A DNA stretch of 64,000 bases from the IMG/VR virus record IMGVR_UViG_3300045738_002143, one strand, 5' to 3'. The notes under the pieces were generated by a model. It made no database searches. It was not told the DNA's origin and was given only the letters and a program-made list of their open reading frames with translations. Positions 11,383 to 34,359 of this stretch are shown here, piece by piece. The stretch comes from an uncultured virus (IMG/VR IMGVR_UViG_3300045738_002143) (lineage: Duplodnaviria; Heunggongvirae; Uroviricota; Caudoviricetes). The translations under genes were made by a program, and so were the position numbers. Within the stretch, counting starts at the first letter, position 1; every line of letters begins with the position of its first letter.

Positions 11383-13041
11383 ATGGCTAACAAGAGTCTT
11401 TTTGGAACTAAGACTGAAACCGAAAAAGCCACCGCAGTCAATGCTGCTGGTGGTCGTGCATACGAGTCGTCTCATAAGCAGGCTCTTGCGCAGATTGCTG
11501 CCACGAATTGCTTTAATGGAACCTACTACGCTAGGGCCGAGGACAATCTCAAGATTGCTCGTGATGCTGCGCAGAATTTAGTTGATGATCCACAGTTTAT
11601 CGCTAAGGTTGCATTATATTCTCGCAGCAAGTCTTACATGAAAGACATGCCAGCGTTCTTGACGGTTGTGTTGGCTGGGATCGATACCAAATTATTTAGG
11701 CAGGTGTTCCCGCTCGTGATCGATAATGGGAGGATGTTGCGTAATTTCATCCAAATTGCTCGCAGTGGGCAGACTGGCCGCACTTTTAATATGTCGGCTG
11801 GTACGTGTCGTCATGCAATTCGTGATTGGTTTGCCAGCAAGTCATCTCATGCAATTTTCAAGGCTTCTATCGGCAACGATCCTTCCATGCGAGATATTTT
11901 GCGCATGGCTCGTCCCCGACCGGATTCTAAGGAGAAGGCGGCTCTGTACGGTTATCTCAAGGGGGCCGAACTAGACAAGAAGACTGGTGCATACCGGACT
12001 TACAATAAAGATGGCAGTGTTCGTTACGAGCATCCTTTCGAGGCTCTGCCGCAGATTGTGCGTGAATACGAGCAATATAAGATGACCAAGGAAGGTACAC
12101 CACCGAATGTAGATTTCCGTATGTTGGATTCATTGGGTTTAGGTCAGTCTGAGTGGACAGACATCGCTCGAAATGCTCCGTGGATGATGACTCGGATGAA
12201 CCTGAACACGTTTGCACGTCATGGTGTATTCGAGGACACCGAGGTTAGTGATCTAATTGCGGCTCGTTTGAGCAACCGTGAGCAGATCGAGAAGTCCCGT
12301 ACTTTCCCATATCAGTTAATGTCTGCTTGGAGGGCCACTAGCGGGAACGAGAAGGTGCCGCATAATGTTCGTGAGGCGTTACAGGATGCGATGGAAATCG
12401 CAATCGATAATGTGCCGAAGATCAATGGTCAGGTATTCGTCTGTGTGGATACTTCAGGCTCTATGGGTTCGCCCGTCACTGGAGATCGTAGGGGATACGG
12501 CGCTCCAAGCACGAGTGTTAGTTGTGTAGACGTGGCCGGTTTGATTGCGTCGAGCGTGGTTCGCAAGAATAGTTCTGCCCAGGTTTTAACCTTCAAGAGT
12601 GATGCTGTACGTGTAGAATTGAACCCAAGGGACACTGTGTTAACCAATACTGAGAAGTTGGCTAGTGCTGGTGGTGGGACTAACTGTTCTTCTGCTTTGG
12701 CCAAGCTGAATCAAGAGCGGGCCACGGGTGATGTAATTATCTATGTCTCGGATTACGAGTCGTGGGTAGATTCTGGATATGGCTATGGATATGGTGCTGG
12801 TACTGGTATGCTCTCCGAGTGGAGTAATTTTCAGGAGCGGAATCCAAATGCCAAGTTGGTTTGTATAGATTTGACTCCGGGGTCTAACAGTCAAGTGAAG
12901 GAACGGCCCAATATCTTGCAAGTTGGAGGTTTCTCTGATACTGTGTTTGATGTGGTTAAAAACTTCATCGAGCATGGCGATAGTGATAATCACTGGGTTG
13001 ATGAGATTGAGAAAATCGAAATTAATTCTGAAAAGGCTTGA
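11383..13041 (+). CDS. Ro60/TROVE-domain RNA-binding protein (Rsr-like)
   Basis: N-terminal NAAGGRAY, TROVE region, vWA with DTSGSM MIDAS, GGTNCS, VGGFSD. Confidence 0.92.
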   Translation: MANKSLFGTKTETEKATAVNAAGGRAYESSHKQALAQIAATNCFNGTYYARAEDNLKIARDAAQNLVDDPQFIAKVALYSRSKSYMKDMPAFLTVVLAGIDTKLFRQVFPLVIDNGRMLRNFIQIARSGQTGRTFNMSAGTCRHAIRDWFASKSSHAIFKASIGNDPSMRDILRMARPRPDSKEKAALYGYLKGAELDKKTGAYRTYNKDGSVRYEHPFEALPQIVREYEQYKMTKEGTPPNVDFRMLDSLGLGQSEWTDIARNAPWMMTRMNLNTFARHGVFEDTEVSDLIAARLSNREQIEKSRTFPYQLMSAWRATSGNEKVPHNVREALQDAMEIAIDNVPKINGQVFVCVDTSGSMGSPVTGDRRGYGAPSTSVSCVDVAGLIASSVVRKNSSAQVLTFKSDAVRVELNPRDTVLTNTEKLASAGGGTNCSSALAKLNQERATGDVIIYVSDYESWVDSGYGYGYGAGTGMLSEWSNFQERNPNAKLVCIDLTPGSNSQVKERPNILQVGGFSDTVFDVVKNFIEHGDSDNHWVDEIEKIEINSEKA

Positions 13042-13606: not shown

Positions 13607-14230
13607 ATGGCGCAAGCCCACCTTACTACCACTGATGTTGCCGAATCTTCTGGCGTTAGAGAGAGAGTGCGGCTGCATGTCGCTAAGCCATGCATTGAGG
13701 ATCATATTGGCCTTGCCTATAGTTGTGCCTTGAGTTTTGTGGGGAAGGGTGCGCATAGTGATGTCGGGCTTTTTAGAACAGAAGACACTGAGGAATATTC
13801 TTTGGCCCTTCTTGGCTTGTGGGATGCTGTAGAAAGTTACAATCCAGACCTGGGATTTAAGTTTTCTACTCATGCTTACAAATGTATGCAAAGTCGCATA
13901 CTTGATGGTCGCAAATTTAATGGCAGACTGAAGAGGAATATACCTTTGGTAGAGGTAGATGACCTCGACTGTTTTATAGGCGATGGTCCTGCGAATTTTT
14001 TGCATGAGCAGATTCTTGAGTTCATTAAAGATCAAAGTGATTTACCGATTGGCACAGATAAGCAAAATATGGATATTTTGCGTGGACATTATATTGATGG
14101 AGATAGTTGGGCCGAGCTAGGAAAAAAGTTTGGAATGACGAGGGCTGGTGCTCGACATTGTGGCCAGGAAGCCATCAAGATAATTCGCAATAGGTTTAAT
14201 ATAAGAGATTGCGACGAAGCCACAAGCTAA
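13607..14230 (+). CDS. Sigma-70 family sigma factor
   Basis: ALLGLWDAVESYNPDLGFKFSTHAYKCM (region 2); SWAELGKKFGMTRAGAR (region 4). Confidence 0.85.
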   Translation: MAQAHLTTTDVAESSGVRERVRLHVAKPCIEDHIGLAYSCALSFVGKGAHSDVGLFRTEDTEEYSLALLGLWDAVESYNPDLGFKFSTHAYKCMQSRILDGRKFNGRLKRNIPLVEVDDLDCFIGDGPANFLHEQILEFIKDQSDLPIGTDKQNMDILRGHYIDGDSWAELGKKFGMTRAGARHCGQEAIKIIRNRFNIRDCDEATS

Positions 14231-15690: not shown

Positions 15691-15764
15691 TGTCGAGTCT
15701 CGAAAGAGATCGGCGGTCCCTACGAACTGGGTCAGGTCGGAAACGAAGCAGCCCTAGTAGGGAT
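15691..15764 (+). ncRNA. Minimal bacterial-type SRP RNA (4.5S-like, helix 8/domain IV)
   Basis: GGGTCAGGTCGGAAACGAAGCAGCCC (CAGG/AGCA symmetric loop, GNRA-type apical loop), GAAC asymmetric loop, closing GTCCCTAC/GTAGGGAT; 5' GAAA hairpin. Confidence 0.85.
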
Positions 15765-15774
15765 TTTATAAAAT

Positions 15775-15846
15775 GCCGGTGTAGCTCAGTGGTAGAGCAC
15801 TGGTTTTGTAAACCAGTTGTCGTGAGTTCGATCCTCTCCACCGGCT
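15775..15846 (+). tRNA. tRNA-Thr(UGU)
   Basis: Cloverleaf GCCGGTG/CACCGGC, anticodon loop TT-TGT-AA; no encoded CCA. Confidence 0.95.
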
Positions 15847-15875
15847 CTTCAGCGTTTTTTCGCACGCTTTCATTG

Positions 15876-17174: not shown

Positions 17175-17602
17175 GTGAATCACAACATGTTCGAAATGAT
17201 GCCGGTCGCAAACAGAGCAGGCCGAAACAAACAAGTGATTGCACCGTAAGAGCTTTGTCGATCACTACCAATACGAGTTACGATGTGGCTTATGACTTAC
17301 TTAAAGGACGAGGGCGTAAGTCTAGCAAAGGGTTTTTCTTCCCTAACAGATGTGTTGATGATTATGCGCTAGGACATAGGTTTATTTGGAAGCCTTTCCC
17401 TTTAGTCAAGTCAAAAAAAAGAATGAGTCCTGAGCGTTTTATTGAAAAGTTCCCCAAAGGTGTTTACATCTGCAAAACTGTAAGACACGTATATGCTGTG
17501 GTAGATGGGGTTATCAATGATATGTTTGTGATTGATTGGTATGAGGGACGCTGTGTTTATGGTTGTTGGGAAGTGGTAAAAAGCTCAGACGCATCCCTGT
17601 AA
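17168..17602 (+). CDS. Hypothetical phage protein (DCxVRAL motif)
   Basis: SDCTVRALS..HVYAVVDGVIND, Cys/His pattern. Confidence 0.6.
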   Translation: MLSESQHVRNDAGRKQSRPKQTSDCTVRALSITTNTSYDVAYDLLKGRGRKSSKGFFFPNRCVDDYALGHRFIWKPFPLVKSKKRMSPERFIEKFPKGVYICKTVRHVYAVVDGVINDMFVIDWYEGRCVYGCWEVVKSSDASL

Positions 17603-17644
17603 TTAGCCCCTCCTCCTTCTTTTTCTCTTTTTCCTAATTCTTGG

Positions 17645-17740
17645 TTTACAGACCTAACTTTGGTAGTACAATGGGAACATCACCAACGAGAAGTGGTGGT
17701 TTCAATTTCTGGCTTACAGAAGCCAAAACAGTAGTACAAT
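17645..17740 (+). promoter_or_regulatory. Two tandem promoter-like motifs (68-nt period)
   Basis: TTTACA-N12-GTAGTACAATG at 17645 and CTTACA-N12-GTAGTACAATG at 17713. Confidence 0.7.
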
Positions 17741-17746
17741 GAGGGA

Positions 17747-18006
17747 ACAACAGGGGTGTTCGCAGCCCCATGAGAGGCGAGAAGCGGCATTTAGGGTGGT
17801 GAGGCACAGTGTGCGTTCGATTGTGAGGAATCAATTTTGGTTCATCGTAAGTCGGCCACGCTCTCACAACATTTGCTGGCTCTCGCAGAAGGCCGTGCTC
17901 GCAAGAGTGAAACATGTCGGAGATAAAAAGATGAGCTTGCTCAGCGGCCTCCGACATCACAATTCCTGTGTCCGAGGCGCATCACACCGCCTCGGCGCAG
18001 GTTTTT
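17747..18006 (+). ncRNA. ~260-nt structured RNA, candidate guide/scaffold for the Cas12f/TnpB-like protein
   Basis: Helices GGGG/CCCC, GCGAGA/TCTCGC, TTGTGAG/CTCACAA, GCTC-GCAA-GAGT, ATGTCGGAG/CTCCGACAT; bounded by promoter and terminator. Confidence 0.65.
17965..18006 (+). terminator. Intrinsic terminator
   Basis: CCTGTGTCCGAGGCG/CGCCTCGGCGCAGG then TTTTT. Confidence 0.8.
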
Positions 18007-18046
18007 AATCTTAATCAGTTTCGATGTTTGTTACTAAGGAGAAATC

Positions 18047-18538
18047 ATGGCACGCTCTACTAACCAAAATCTGAAACGTTTGCAGACGTTAGCCGATGCG
18101 GCGGATAAGAATATTTTTGAACGAATCGATCTAGCCGCAAGGGTGCTTGCTGATCTCGATTGGGTTGCCGAAAATCATGAAAACGAGGATAAGGCTCGAT
18201 CATGGTTGGAATCGCAATTTTTCAATCAACTCGCAGGGATATTCTCTCTTGGTAAACTCTTCCAAATTCACGAGCAATTTCCTAACGAGGAACAGTGGGC
18301 AGAGTACCGCTATGACCTCCCGGCGATGCACTCTCTGTGGAAAGAGCGTCAGTCAGATGATGGTCTCACCGGCACACGCACGGCGTGGAAGCCTATCGCT
18401 GAAGAGTTCAAGGCCAGATGTGAAGAGTTAGAGTCCGAGAACGCAGCGCTCAAATTGCAGGTTGTTGAGCTAACCCACAAGAATGCGGTCCTTGAAGGAC
18501 GGCTGGCTGAGCGGCGACGAGATGAAGATGCGGCGTGA
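18047..18538 (+). CDS. Hypothetical protein with C-terminal coiled coil
   Basis: AAGGAG RBS; heptad-rich C-terminus. Confidence 0.75.
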   Translation: MARSTNQNLKRLQTLADAADKNIFERIDLAARVLADLDWVAENHENEDKARSWLESQFFNQLAGIFSLGKLFQIHEQFPNEEQWAEYRYDLPAMHSLWKERQSDDGLTGTRTAWKPIAEEFKARCEELESENAALKLQVVELTHKNAVLEGRLAERRRDEDAA

Positions 18539-18620
18539 GCTTGAGCTTTGACAGTTTGTGATGTGAGTTTACTGGGAACTGGGCCTGATGCAAAAGTAGT
18601 GTGAGTAGAAGGAGAAAAAC

Positions 18621-19922
18621 ATGCCTAAACCAACCGTAATGGAAATCGAAATCGGTGCCCCGGTGGGCATGTCGCAGAAGAGGTTGCATAAATCTCTTGA
18701 GCAGAGTGCAAGAGATTGCAATCGGGTGCGGAACGCAATGATCCGTAGGTTCATCCGGTTTCATGAAGATAATCCCGACTACGAACCGAAAGACATCACG
18801 ACGAAGAGGGGCGAGACGAAGAAGGAAAATGCGGTGTTCCCGTATGAACTCGTTTCCTCAACGTGCGATGATAGTTTCTACCGATTAGGGCAGCGAGTAG
18901 CTCCTCGTTTGGGTAGTTTGCTAATTACCGCTATTCAGAACGAGGTCGTGAATGCGCTCAAAAATAGAGTACCTTACGATCACGATGGCGATGCTCGGTA
19001 TAAGTGGCAATCTATCTTGAATTTCGAAACGTCGGCTCCATCATACAGGGGTATGGTCATTCCTGCACCAAACAAGGGGATCGTGCTAGGCTATCAGGGC
19101 CATGTCTCGAATCCAAAATCAAAATTGGGCGAGATGGCAGAAGACCATTGCGTCATCAAGTTTGGTTTATTTTCCCAGAAAAGCGGCTGGAAAATCCTCA
19201 GCCCCGTTGTGAGATGCAATCTTGGATCGGCCTGGAGTCGAGGCCACAAACGGCTTCTGCGGGAGATGGCTTCCGGGGAGAGGAAAATTTGTGACTCCAA
19301 GATCGTGTTCAAGAGAAAAAAGTGGTTTTTACAGTTGACTTATGAAGTGCCTGTGAAAGATCATGGTCTCGATCAAACTCGGACGGCGATTTTGGTCATG
19401 AATGGGGCGCAGCACGACCGCCCGTTTGCGATTAGCATGATTGGCAAAGATGGCAACTGGTTTACCTTCGGCATCGGCGATGGTAAGCCGCTGGAAAAAG
19501 AACGTGTGCGATTGGACACACGCAGACGAGCCATGCGGTATCGCAGCCGCAACGGCTCTGGTACGGGCCACGGCAAGAAGAAGTTCTACAGCCGCCTGCG
19601 GCCAGCCGCACGTCGTTATACCGATATGCAGAATGAATTTCGCAATCAGGCAATCAACGACATCGTGAGATCACTCGTGCGTCACGATTGCGGTAAGCTC
19701 GAATATCGTGAGCCTACTAAGCCAGTGAGGGAATTGTCTTGGTTCGAGAAGAAGAATACTCCCTTTGACTGGGTGAAGTTCTTGGGTCACCTGGAATTCA
19801 AATTGGAGGCAAATTGCATTGAGGTAGAGACTCGTCGGATGCAGATGAAAGAGTGGAAAGCTAAGTTCGGCGTAGTTGATGCAGACGATGTAGACGATGC
19901 GAAGGATGCAGCGGTAGCATAA
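18621..19922 (+). CDS. Cas12f/TnpB-like protein, predicted nuclease-dead and C-terminally truncated
   Basis: SAPSYR..IP, KKWFLQLTYE, GHGKKK, IVR..HDCGKLEYREP, LEFKLEANCIEV; RuvC-I GxDxG replaced by ILVMNG; no Zn finger or RuvC-III. Confidence 0.75.
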   Translation: MPKPTVMEIEIGAPVGMSQKRLHKSLEQSARDCNRVRNAMIRRFIRFHEDNPDYEPKDITTKRGETKKENAVFPYELVSSTCDDSFYRLGQRVAPRLGSLLITAIQNEVVNALKNRVPYDHDGDARYKWQSILNFETSAPSYRGMVIPAPNKGIVLGYQGHVSNPKSKLGEMAEDHCVIKFGLFSQKSGWKILSPVVRCNLGSAWSRGHKRLLREMASGERKICDSKIVFKRKKWFLQLTYEVPVKDHGLDQTRTAILVMNGAQHDRPFAISMIGKDGNWFTFGIGDGKPLEKERVRLDTRRRAMRYRSRNGSGTGHGKKKFYSRLRPAARRYTDMQNEFRNQAINDIVRSLVRHDCGKLEYREPTKPVRELSWFEKKNTPFDWVKFLGHLEFKLEANCIEVETRRMQMKEWKAKFGVVDADDVDDAKDAAVA

Positions 19923-19932
19923 GGATTCAAGC

Positions 19933-20196
19933 ATGAAGGATCATCTTGACTGTGCCATTTGTGGCGAGCCAGTTAATTTATCGGCGAAGCGTCGTCGAGA
20001 ATTGCTAAAGGAAGGCCGTCGCCCGGTGTGTAGAAAAAATGGATGCTATCGATATGCCAAGACGCTTCCCAAAAACATAAAACGAGTTTCCGCAGTCGAA
20101 GGAATGGTGATTAATCTGGAAACGGGCAAGATGAGCCGCACGTTTTGTGAGCCAAGGCCCGAAGTACATGGTGACGAAAATCAGTGTGATTTATGA
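19933..20196 (+). CDS. Small zinc-finger-like protein
   Basis: CAICG..CRKNGC. Confidence 0.6.
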   Translation: MKDHLDCAICGEPVNLSAKRRRELLKEGRRPVCRKNGCYRYAKTLPKNIKRVSAVEGMVINLETGKMSRTFCEPRPEVHGDENQCDL

Positions 20197-20414
20197 ATCA
20201 GTGCAAAGCGTGCGGACATTATTTTCTTGAGGGGTTTTGTCTCAATTGCTCCAACTGCAAGGGGGATTGCATTTGCGACGACGATAATCCGAAAATCAGT
20301 GACCGAGAATTGGATAAACTGATTGCTCAGAGTGAGGCAGTAGTAAAAAATTGGACACCGGAACAACGACAAAAGTACGAGGACGACATTACAACCGATT
20401 ATCCCGGATATTGA
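20193..20414 (+). CDS. Small Cys-rich protein
   Basis: CKAC..CLNCSNC..CIC. Confidence 0.55.
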   Translation: MNQCKACGHYFLEGFCLNCSNCKGDCICDDDNPKISDRELDKLIAQSEAVVKNWTPEQRQKYEDDITTDYPGY

Positions 20415-20527
20415 AAAATTATGATGTTGTCTTTATTTAATATCTACACTATGATACACTACTTAAACATGCGAACCCGATGGATTGGTTCGGTGACACT
20501 TATTACTTGAGAGAGAAGAGATTGATT

Positions 20528-20722
20528 ATGGCACAGGGCACGATTAAGAAGTTGATGGAAAAAGGTTTTGGATTTATTGACACCGGTAATGGCGATCTGT
20601 TTTTCCACATGTCCGCTTTGGACGGGGTGGGATTTGAGGAACTCCAAGAAGGCCAACAAGTCGAATACAACGAAGGCCAAGGGCCAAAGGGCGCACGGGC
20701 TGAAAATGTACGGCCAGTGTGA
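20528..20722 (+). CDS. Cold-shock domain protein
   Basis: KGFGFI (RNP1), LFFH (RNP2), GPKGARAENV. Confidence 0.95.
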   Translation: MAQGTIKKLMEKGFGFIDTGNGDLFFHMSALDGVGFEELQEGQQVEYNEGQGPKGARAENVRPV

Positions 20723-20747
20723 TGCAAGGGGCTGCTAGAATTTGAGA

Positions 20748-20918
20748 CGGGCTGCTATACATACCCCTACCGTGATGCGGGCCGAACAGGGTCCGAACAG
20801 GAGAGTAACGGTATCATGACGAATCCCGTCGCCGATACCACGTAACTCTTCTGGGCTGCTCAGGAGTGAGCTAGTTGGAATAATAAACCCGCTCAGGCGA
20901 AGCCTGGGCGGGTTTATT
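20748..20918 (+). ncRNA. Unassigned structured RNA candidate (6S-sized rod)
   Basis: TGnTAGAAT upstream; CAGGAGAG/CTCTTCTG, GGTATC/GATACC, GACG/CGTC helices; ends in terminator. Confidence 0.5.
20882..20918 (+). terminator. Bidirectional intrinsic terminator
   Basis: AATAAACCCGCTCAGGC-GAA-GCCTGGGCGGGTTTATT between convergent units. Confidence 0.9.
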
Positions 20919-20945
20919 TATTGGATGGTTACATTCCTGGTGTCC

Positions 20946-26929: not shown

Positions 26930-27268
26930 ATGAACACCAAAGAATATCAGAGGGAGTACCACAAGAAATGGTATGCCGATCCCAAGAATGCTCGGAATAA
27001 AAAGGAAAACGCAAAGAAGCACCGCATCTTGAAACGTGCAAGGAACCGCCAGTTTCTCAAGGAATACAAAGAAGAGAAGTGTTGCGAGAAGTGCGACGAA
27101 TCACATCCGGCTTGTTTGGACTTCCACCATTTGGAACCTTCAGAAAAGGACCATAACATTTCTGACATGGTGCCCAGAGGCTATAGCATTGAGAGGATTA
27201 ATGAAGAGATTGGGAAGTGCATTTTGGTTTGTAGAAATTGTCACGCTAAAATTCACTGGGGCGATTAG
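26930..27268 (+). CDS. HNH endonuclease (free-standing, homing-type)
   Basis: CEKC..CLDFHH..KCILVCRNCH..H. Confidence 0.85.
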   Translation: MNTKEYQREYHKKWYADPKNARNKKENAKKHRILKRARNRQFLKEYKEEKCCEKCDESHPACLDFHHLEPSEKDHNISDMVPRGYSIERINEEIGKCILVCRNCHAKIHWGD

Positions 27269-33747: not shown

Positions 33748-34176
33748 TTAACTAAAAGATCGTCTAAGTGAAGGGTGGTGTAAGTCAGTATGACAGTTCA
33801 AGCATAAAAGTTGACATTTGTTGGATTCTTCCAATAAAGTTTCCCATTTGTGATTTGAACACGCACGTAGGTCTAATCCAAAGTTTTTAGTTGCTGGATT
33901 AATGTGGTGGAAGCTAAGAGCGGAGTAGTTGTATTGATAACCACAAAGTTCGCATTTTCCACCTTTTCCTTCGACTAGATTAATCTTGCGTTTTAGACCA
34001 CGTTTCTGTTGCGAAGCATAGTTTTGGTGCTTGATGTTGCCATGTTTATTATGGCATTTTCGAGAACAATATTTTGCTTGCCTACCAGATAATGTCTTGC
34101 TGCAAACAACGCATTTTATATGACGTTCTTTTATTGGGTTGCTATTAGTTTTCATGTGATTATGGGAGTAGTTCAT
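33748..34176 (-). CDS. Intron-encoded HNH endonuclease (antisense)
   Basis: CELCG..ALSFHH..KCQLLCLNCH..H plus N-terminal CVVC..YCSRKC. Confidence 0.85.
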   Translation of the reverse strand: MNYSHNHMKTNSNPIKERHIKCVVCSKTLSGRQAKYCSRKCHNKHGNIKHQNYASQQKRGLKRKINLVEGKGGKCELCGYQYNYSALSFHHINPATKNFGLDLRACSNHKWETLLEESNKCQLLCLNCHTDLHHPSLRRSFS

Positions 34177-34359
34177 AATCGTTTTGAAGACTTTTAGTAG
34201 AATTTGTCAAATTCAGGGAAGGCTAAGTTTCTTAGGAAATATGCTAATCCTGAGCCAAGCTCGTAAGAGAAGGTGCAGAGACTAGACGGCAAACCCGTAA
34301 AGGGAAGGGATAGTCCAGGCCACAAACTTGAAAGAGGCGGCGAAAGTCGTAGTGGTAAG
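33749..34359 (+). mobile_element. Group I intron (IC3-like)
   Basis: P AAATTCAGGGAA, Q AATCCTGAGC, R GCAGAGACTAGA, S AGGGATAGTCC; P3 TTTGTC/GGCAAA; exon ends in U, intron ends in G. Confidence 0.9.

Follow-up and report, generated by a model that had tools for sequence, protein, structure and literature searches.

What is the structured RNA encoded upstream of a Cas12f-like gene in an uncultured virus of the Caudoviricetes, and does it carry a guide of its own? The 64,000-nucleotide stretch of DNA analysed here (IMG/VR record IMGVR_UViG_3300045738_002143; the whole stretch is called the window) contains a 444-nt gap between two genes of the plus strand, 17603–18046, and this gap houses the RNA. 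It is followed by genes for a coiled-coil companion protein, for the Cas12f-like protein and for a zinc-ribbon protein. The first-pass annotation of the locus described a multi-helix RNA, part of which was thought to resemble the 3' end of a repeat of CRISPR (clustered and regularly interspaced short palindromic repeats) with a guide directly behind it, as in a CRISPR RNA (crRNA). Covariation and homologous loci, presented below, bear out one half of this interpretation, a pseudoknotted multi-helix RNA that partners a Cas12f-like protein, while the repeat-plus-guide half does not stand. The RNA is a trans-activating CRISPR RNA (tracrRNA)-type adaptor with a dual anti-repeat, rather than a repeat-plus-guide or a single-guide RNA, and with its homologues it makes up a new family of tracrRNAs, belonging to a nuclease-dead Cas12f (dCas12f) variant carried by viruses. 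That 17747–18006 serves as such an adaptor, with the dead Cas12f-like protein whose gene is situated 0.6 kb further downstream as its partner, is considered probable.

When relatives of the Cas12f-like protein were fetched together with their surroundings, 32 loci were obtained (1 viral and 31 metagenomic), and the RNA was found adjoining protein relatives in 16 loci besides the window; most of the loci without an RNA match have too little upstream sequence. Searches with BLAST and nhmmer, using 17600–18050 as query, revealed two conserved blocks (17752–90 and 17880–95) in 14 of the 32 loci, always on the strand of the protein gene and mostly 0.7–1.9 kb upstream of it. A covariance model of 78 positions, made from the 3' domain of the RNA, added the locus L014 and, weakly (E 0.19), L017, and L038 was added by scanning viral contigs for the motif. 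Marine, seawater and hydrothermal-vent metagenome runs contain close relatives of the window, in which the RNA is nearly invariant while the protein gene has dozens of changes. One contig spanning 17547–18568 shows seven substitutions, and six of those listed are situated outside 17749–18006. No match to the region or to its 4-kb neighbourhood was found when running BLAST against 50,697 phage records, and Rfam gave no family for the RNA region, either at gathering thresholds for the whole window or at E ≤ 10 for 17300–18300.

Folding of 17747–18006 gave a minimum free energy (MFE) of -99.8 kcal/mol (z = -2.51), and 3 of 200 shuffled sequences were as stable. From 13 aligned sequences RNAalifold recovers hairpin P1, helix P2 and a helix formed by 17892–95 and 17945–48, with compensatory changes at 8 of 19 pairs; hairpin P1 has five pairs with compensatory changes. 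Helix 17777–82/17881–86, one of those first described, turned out to be part of a longer helix P2 (17777–88/17875–86), in which RNAalifold keeps 10 of 10 pairs across the 13 sequences and where a G-C pair is exchanged for C-G in L009, the same change being seen by eye in L017. The central domain enclosed by this helix varies in both length and sequence and cannot be aligned between loci. A helix previously placed within it, 17821–27/17863–69, is missing from the MFE structure of the domain, where 17863–67 pairs with 17799–803 instead, and the CTCTCA half of a proposed TGAGAG/CTCTCA alternative pairing also falls inside this unalignable part.

Two pairings noted separately in the first description, helix 17914–22/17949–57 and the alternative pairing AGGCCG/CGGCCT, are both real and coexist: stem a (17890–95/17945–50) is crossed by 17915–22/17949–56 (stem b), and the two by inspection form an H-type pseudoknot. 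Both stems were tested jointly on 11 well-aligned sequences, against 500 shuffles and against slid registers. In these sequences 94.3% of the cells are paired and 5 of 10 pairs show double changes, with a covariation score of 0.389 compared to 0.148 ± 0.032 in the shuffles, none of which (0/500) scored as high, and the slid registers gave at most 46% pairing. Constraining the window RNA to hairpin P1, helix P2 and stem b gave -97.7 kcal/mol against the MFE of -99.8 kcal/mol, a cost of about 2 kcal/mol. The hairpin with a GCAA tetraloop (17897–908) is present as annotated, but it is a lineage-specific insertion in the first loop of the pseudoknot; L009 has an insertion of different sequence at this place and 11 of the 13 aligned RNAs have none. 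The terminator described at 17965–18006 is visible in both sequence and fold, although a simple terminator scan did not list it, and nearly all related RNAs have a terminator in the corresponding position, its sequence being unrelated. Most of the helices first described are present and better supported than chance.

The same structure speaks against the proposed guide. The segment GAGTGAAAC had been likened to the 3' end of a crRNA repeat, which it is not; its GAAAC makes up loop 1 of the pseudoknot and is conserved as G-R-A-A-N in 13 of 13 aligned RNAs. The nucleotides behind it, 17914–17935, had been proposed as a possible guide, but 17915–22 is the 5' arm of stem b and covaries with 17949–56, and since the segment consists of one arm and the loop of a covarying pseudoknot it belongs to the scaffold. 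A drop in conservation, expected at 17913/14 if a guide started there, is not found at that position but comes after 17956, and the variable piece of the RNA is a single strand of 9–14 nt between the pseudoknot and the terminator.

This single-stranded tail differs in nearly every lineage, yet it matches the CRISPR repeats of its own locus. In 10 of 13 loci tested, a 9–12-mer of the tail recurs as its reverse complement elsewhere in the locus, mostly in tandem with a period of 66–77 nt, and these recurrences are CRISPR arrays on the strand of the protein gene, with repeats of ~36–37 nt and variable spacers of ~36–37 nt. The tail pairs with 8–12 bases ending one base before a terminal GCGAG, directly 5' of the spacer, and repeat ends that pair with at least 7 bases of the tail and continue with the hexamer motif number 41, 8, 15, 16, 26, 14 etc. 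per locus. A hexamer in the loop of hairpin P1 is in turn complementary to the last six bases of the repeats of its own locus, and the two covary in trans: most loci combine the loop CUCGCA with the repeat end UGCGAG, CUUGCA is matched by UGCAAG in L026/27 and also, independently of these, in L038, and CUCUCA is matched by UGAGAG in L025, whose repeat end had been predicted from its loop when the array was still to be found. Because tail and loop are both complementary to the repeat ends of their own locus and covary with them, the RNA is assigned as a tracrRNA with two anti-repeats (anti-repeats 1 and 2, Table 1). Guide RNAs of Cas12f likewise combine a pseudoknot with two repeat:anti-repeat duplexes. 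Complementarity between anti-repeat and repeat of the same system was found for the RNA family, and the window itself offers a solo, degenerate repeat end alone.

Sites resembling repeat ends were also seen in other positions of the related loci. One that fits both anti-repeats (8–10 pairs together with UGCGAG) is located at 1069–1092 of L006, within the dCas12f coding sequence. In L009, 3895–3950 consists of a solo repeat end and, behind it, a copy of 32 nt from the terminator region of its own tracrRNA, which is either a self-directed spacer or a duplication. In L007 (1355–1377) and in other loci the last codons and stop of the coiled-coil gene, with frequent ...VGV* endings, overlap repeat-like sequence, so that the C-terminus of the protein and the repeat end share bases.

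The behaviour of the tail also bears on whether the RNA could be a single-guide RNA of the type known from TnpB omega-RNAs, TldR and dCas12f-sigmaE, in which case the ~10–16 nt from 17956 would be the guide. In those systems the guide is placed at the 3' end, right after the scaffold, and guides of 9–11 nt are reported for some TldRs (10.1101/2023.11.30.569447; PMC13472631); the window moreover is without an array. For a guide, however, it would be a coincidence that the tail is complementary to the CRISPR repeats of its own locus and changes with them, a search of the window for matches to the tail gave nothing above chance, and the tail leads directly into a strong terminator stem. Scaffold and 3' guide were not found joined in one RNA, as arrays supply the guides in this family, and a single-guide RNA is therefore regarded as very unlikely.

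The possibility that the RNA does not act in trans at all, the region being either coding (open reading frame (ORF) 17739–18008, 89 aa) or a 5' leader acting in cis on the downstream operon as attenuator or riboswitch, appears improbable in the extreme. The ORF is open across the region, as the first-pass annotation had pointed out, and from the terminator to the next gene there are 40 nt without a promoter-like site, so that genes further downstream might be expressed by read-through. Pfam, however, gave no match for the ORF, many indels are not multiples of three, and the variable columns (22/34, 20/32 and 26/35 at codon positions 1, 2 and 3) show no excess at the third position. As for a leader, the RNA comes behind the coiled-coil gene in L005, and in L001 the two are separated by an array, from which it follows that the RNA is not tied to a leader position, and a leader would leave the complementarity to repeats in trans unexplained.

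Table 1. Positions of the features of the RNA locus in the window
Feature	Position	Strand	Basis
Promoter-like site P1, TTTACA/16 nt/TACAAT	17645–17672	+	10/12 matches
Short hairpin, then U-rich run, after promoter P1	17679–17712	+	terminator-like site 17679–17700
Promoter-like site P2, CTTACA/16 nt/TACAAT, spaced for a start near 17747	17713–17740	+	9/12 matches
Structured tracrRNA-like RNA, ~260 nt, from predicted start to terminator U-run	17747–18006	+	homologous loci
Hairpin P1, 17753–57 with 17765–69; loop 17758–64 with UUCGCA, proposed anti-repeat 2	17753–17769	+	RNAalifold
Helix P2, 5' strand, pairs with 17875–17886	17777–17788	+	RNAalifold: 10 pairs, compensatory changes at 4
Central variable domain; in the window a long irregular hairpin, 17796–17870	17789–17874	+	MFE
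Helix P2, 3' strand	17875–17886	+	RNAalifold
Pseudoknot stem a, 5' arm, pairs with 17945–17950	17890–17895	+	covariation, e.g. C-G to U-A in 3/11
GCAA-tetraloop hairpin inserted in pseudoknot loop 1	17896–17909	+	sequence, fold; lineage-specific
Loop-1 motif GAAACA	17909–17914	+	G-R-A-A-N kept in 13/13 aligned RNAs
Pseudoknot stem b, 5' arm, pairs with 17949–17956	17915–17922	+	compensatory changes at 4/6 pairs
3' arms of stems a (17945–50) and b (17949–56), two-base overlap	17945–17956	+	covariation, fold
Single-stranded 3' tail, proposed anti-repeat 1	17956–17966	+	repeat pairing in related loci
Intrinsic terminator: lower stem 17965–68/17998–18001, upper stem 17972–79/17988–95, U-run 18002–06	17965–18006	+	sequence, fold
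Companion protein, 163 aa: helical N-terminal domain and long C-terminal coiled-coil helix	18047–18538	+	homologues, AlphaFold2 model
Solo degenerate CRISPR-repeat 3' end, TTGTGAT + GTGAG; candidate crRNA handle	18556–18567	+	64-kb scan
Candidate guide ('spacer') after the solo repeat, running into the ribosome-binding region of the next gene	18568–18603	+	position
Cas12f-like protein, 433 aa, RuvC site not intact (dCas12f-like)	18621–19922	+	homology to solved structures
Zinc-ribbon protein, 87 aa, DCxICGEP ... RPxCRKNGC	19933–20196	+	alignment of family

The Cas12f-like gene is located downstream of the RNA as annotated. Its 433-aa product has no match in Pfam, and a phmmer comparison with the solved Cas12f 9nzq (E 5.8e-8) revealed homology over the WED/RuvC core. 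When a profile of 14 family members was run against solved structures, 10 of 10 matches were Cas12f or TnpB-type proteins annotated as OrfB, with 9nzq as the best (E 7.4e-13) and with the 'nuclease-deactivated Cas12f' 9n9c among them (E 4.9e-9). In the pairwise alignment N261 takes the position of the RuvC-I aspartate of 9nzq, and in this column the relatives have N, G, A, L, C, T or S, with D in none of the 14. The match stops ~75 residues short of the C-terminus of 9nzq and no CxxC motif is present in the last 70 residues, so both the zinc finger and RuvC-III are taken to be missing; neither an intact RuvC triad (D, E, D) nor a C-terminal zinc finger was found in the protein. Having lost RuvC-III and the zinc finger as well as the RuvC-I aspartate, the protein would be expected to bind DNA without cutting it. 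A motif YREP (362–365) is invariant in the family, and its E364 may be the RuvC-II glutamate.

With a cut-off of E ≤ 1e-3 the protein family comprises 280 representative proteins, and with E ≤ 1e-30 it comprises 104. Scanning viral contigs for exact peptides of the window protein gave nothing, and no relative was found among the representatives of 185,579 species in two scans with one or two peptide patterns each; since these patterns are narrow, absence from cellular genomes is weakly supported by the scans. Six loci, on five distinct contigs, derive from a viral contig collection, and among the genes flanking related loci are those for an integrase, for a YqaJ-type recombinase and for a terminase. 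No cas1, cas2 or cas4 was found among 18 flanking ORFs of four related loci. Every identifiable context of the family is viral.

The companion protein encoded between the RNA and the dCas12f-like gene has homologues in all 23 of the 23 loci with sufficient upstream sequence. Its AlphaFold2 model has a pLDDT (predicted local distance difference test) of 87 and a C-terminal helix of 49 residues. Besides coiled coils no Pfam, PHROG or fold match was obtained for this protein; for its N-terminal domain, Foldseek and a wide aligner gave no fold match, those listed covering the C-terminal helix alone, and a language-model atlas gave just leads below 0.9 to DUF3102. In 31 of the 49 loci scanned the dCas12f-like gene is followed directly by the zinc-ribbon gene, whose product has no PDB or Pfam relative. 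That it could be a split-off zinc finger of Cas12f was considered and rejected, as it shows no similarity to Cas12f. No sigma-factor match was found for the adjacent genes in Pfam, PHROGs or PDB. A sigma-factor-like gene at 13607–14230 (phrog_351, E 8e-10) is situated 3.4 kb upstream and is not conserved with the module elsewhere. Right after the zinc-ribbon gene there is a second small cysteine-rich ORF (73 aa, 20193–20414), which has no PHROG match and was not seen in related loci.

Where, then, would the window RNA find its crRNA? The solo repeat end listed in Table 1 is the sole site in the 64 kb, on both strands, where at least 7 pairs with the tail are followed by the motif G[CT][GA]AG. 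Its register is that of the repeats in other loci, and it is located in the 82-nt gap between the genes for the 163-aa and 433-aa proteins. The duplex with the tail has 7 pairs (-8.6 kcal/mol) and the duplex with the loop of hairpin P1 has 6 pairs including two G-U (-5.3 kcal/mol). L007, L030, L009, L025, L026/27, L005 and L001 have, at the equivalent place, either a solo repeat end or the terminal repeat of an array situated upstream. Indels in close relatives of the window are concentrated at 18535–18598, among them those at 18569–18598 within the candidate guide, and one relative contig diverges exactly behind 18568, which is the predicted junction of repeat and guide. No target beyond chance was found within the window for the candidate guides after 18567 and 18605, and 306 spacers extracted from related loci gave no match to the window. 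A match at 27079 to the motif of the repeat end falls within an HNH gene and was put down to chance. Placed in the 5' leader of the dCas12f gene, the solo repeat end may supply a single fixed crRNA; alternatively, it may let the complex bind its own mRNA or locus, a form of autoregulation.

An array-less tracrRNA together with a dead Cas12f might also serve as a decoy or anti-CRISPR that captures the crRNAs of a type V-F array of the host or of a rival phage, so that immunity would be neutralised or redirected into harmless binding; the RNA would still be a tracrRNA, with foreign crRNA partners. This would agree with the lack of an array in the 64-kb window and of one inserted at 17500–20600 in relatives, and the same idea has been proposed for a phage Cas9 with a dead RuvC domain and a phage tracrRNA (PMC11656645). 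However, every related locus with enough flank has its own cognate arrays, which argues that the basic mode of the family is self-contained, and the window is part of a larger genome, so an array may be located outside it. Since the two pattern scans of the representatives of 185,579 species yielded no protein relative, no candidate host system is in hand, and when viral contigs were scanned with exact patterns of the repeat end expected to be cognate, 8 single matches and no array were obtained. A decoy is on these grounds thought to be unlikely.

For the tracrRNA-type adaptor, which is the preferred reading, the following course of events is proposed. The RNA would be made from its own promoter, P2 and possibly also P1, and end at its own terminator. 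Its conserved scaffold, consisting of hairpin P1, helix P2 closing the variable domain and the H-type pseudoknot, would bind the dead Cas12f. The tail would pair with 8–12 bases of the repeat and the loop of hairpin P1 with the terminal hexamer next to the spacer, together covering the last 15–18 bases, and a crRNA captured in this way would have its guide docked on the protein. The complex would then bind DNA matching the guide and leave it uncut, resulting in transcriptional silencing or in recruitment of the coiled-coil and zinc-ribbon proteins, and these two partners would set the outcome of DNA binding. The steps beyond RNA-RNA pairing are suggested by analogy with Cas12f and its nuclease-dead relatives.

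Several points weigh against this reading. Tandem-repeat and pattern searches revealed no CRISPR array in the 64-kb window, and the related loci, which do have arrays, gave no cas1, cas2 or cas4 among the flanking ORFs examined, so that a complete CRISPR-Cas locus with array and adaptation genes was not found; an array may be present outside the 64 kb, the window being part of a larger genome. The solo repeat end pairs with just 7 bases of the tail, compared to 8–12 elsewhere, and with two G-U pairs with the loop, and it could be a decaying relic. The best target seeds of the candidate guide in the window are 9 nt, which is about chance level. The covariance model built from the other loci aligns just 22 nt of the 3' domain of the window RNA (E 0.076), because of the inserted hairpin, and therefore the pseudoknot of the window was assigned by eye and by folding. 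The existence of the RNA and its ends are deduced from promoter and terminator motifs and from conservation, as a look through public sequencing runs gave no RNA run that contains the stretch; the binding of protein to RNA and of protein to protein is predicted by analogy, and the protein may have residual activity, e.g. RNA processing, through E364.

When comparing the family with known systems, it shares with type V-F CRISPR-Cas12f a small Cas12f-type protein, a structured and, by prediction, separately transcribed RNA beside its gene, a pseudoknot scaffold and anti-repeats complementary to the spacer-proximal 3' part of the repeat. Unlike type V-F, the window family is without the RuvC-I aspartate, zinc finger and RuvC-III, its RNA is long (~210–260 nt) with one anti-repeat in a hairpin loop at the 5' end, coiled-coil and zinc-ribbon genes are added while no cas1, cas2 or cas4 is present in the flanks examined, the contexts are viral, and the copy in the window has no array.

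The dCas12f-sigmaE systems have C-terminally truncated Cas12f homologues in which part of RuvC is gone and which bind DNA uncut with a dedicated partner (Hoffmann et al., PMC13472631). The window family shares with them a C-terminally reduced Cas12f homologue, predicted to bind, and dedicated partners. The dCas12f-sigmaE systems are encoded on Bacteroidetes chromosomes with single guide RNAs of 85–105 nt immediately downstream and a sigma-E partner, and no tracrRNA was found for them (PMC13472631), whereas the window family has a ~260-nt tracrRNA upstream and guides from CRISPR arrays, its partners are coiled-coil and zinc-ribbon proteins, and an operonic sigma-E with a C-terminal extension was not found. 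Extended Data Fig. 1 of the same report contains a separate dCas12f cluster near CRISPR arrays (PMC13472631), and this cluster might overlap the window family. TldRs are RuvC-dead, C-terminally reduced repressors of TnpB/Cas12 type, some of them phage-encoded, that bind under RNA guidance with a single guide RNA of ~100–113 nt and a 3' guide of 9–16 nt (10.1101/2023.11.30.569447); in contrast to the window family they are without CRISPR arrays, and in the profile search the 433-aa protein is closest to Cas12f proper.

Type V-M Cas12m is a type V effector of mobile elements that has arrays and silences by binding (PMC11656645). It differs from the window protein in family and size, no Cas12m was among the solved-structure matches, and the window family has a tracrRNA. 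The phage Cas9 with dead RuvC ('Cas9c') and its phage tracrRNA have been proposed to soak up host crRNAs (PMC11656645), which resembles the window in that a virus has a disabled effector and a tracrRNA, the effector class being another. The tracr-L of Cas9 is described as having a degenerate guide placed to act on expression of its own system. By analogy with such cases, the decoy and autoregulator roles of the array-less copy with its solo repeat are put forward as hypotheses. No description of the module was found in the literature, in a search that did not include a Cell 2022 survey of virus-encoded CRISPR systems and a Science 2023 clustering study, both possibly relevant.

Recent work has shown nuclease-dead relatives of TnpB and Cas12f to be natural RNA-guided transcription factors, the described cases having single guides and being located on bacterial chromosomes or in prophages. 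The window family differs from these in its dual tracrRNA/crRNA design with real CRISPR arrays, its two partner proteins and its viral contexts, and because of these differences it would, if the interpretation is correct, represent a further route from CRISPR effectors to regulators, taken by phages. A wider picture, possible rather than probable, is that this virus-specific branch of Cas12f is a cutting-dead DNA binder of four conserved parts (the long tracrRNA with its pair of anti-repeats, of which one is a kissing hairpin loop; dCas12f; the coiled-coil partner; and the zinc-ribbon partner) with which phages switch genes of hosts or rivals off or on, and that in the marine phage of the window little of the system is left but one hard-wired guide, placed in the 5' leader of the effector gene, so that it would be a self-regulating and array-free regulator. 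The pairing rule, tail and hairpin loop against the repeat end, can be tested and could be used to find arrays and to programme a binder of ~430 aa, and the array-less copy raises the question of what use a phage has of tracrRNA and dead effector alone.

The two promoter-like sites upstream of the RNA have near-identical -10 regions. P2 is the putative promoter of the RNA and is sigma-70-like, P1 possibly being another promoter, and the start of the RNA near 17747 is suggested by the spacing from P2. In relatives a T at 17713 gives TTTACA at promoter P2. The hairpin and U-rich run behind promoter P1 are either a weak terminator or leader, or the remnant of a duplication, and this piece is poorly constrained, as close relatives have a 13-nt insertion behind 17686. 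The promoter unit 17645–17712 as a whole resembles a partial tandem duplicate of promoter P2 and the 5' end of the RNA, from which hairpin P1 would have been deleted.

As for the rest of the window, it looks like part of a large phage, judging from its four tRNAs, its group I intron and its genes for an NAD-dependent ligase, a Ro-like protein, a sigma-like factor and HNH endonucleases. The intron match (34142–34340, 58.8 bits) covers the full model and has HNH endonuclease genes nearby. At 11383–13041 a protein matching phrog_850, annotated as RNA-binding protein (E 5e-39), is encoded, which we take to be Ro60-like. An Rfam match to the bacterial small signal recognition particle RNA (15708–15784, 44.1 bits with a gathering score of 40) overlaps the start of a tRNA-Thr (15775–15847) by ~10 nt; such an RNA would be unusual in a phage. 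Finally, a non-coding stretch after a cold-shock gene, 20723–20925, contains GGGCTGCT three times and a strong terminator hairpin near 20889–20920, and is possibly another small RNA.

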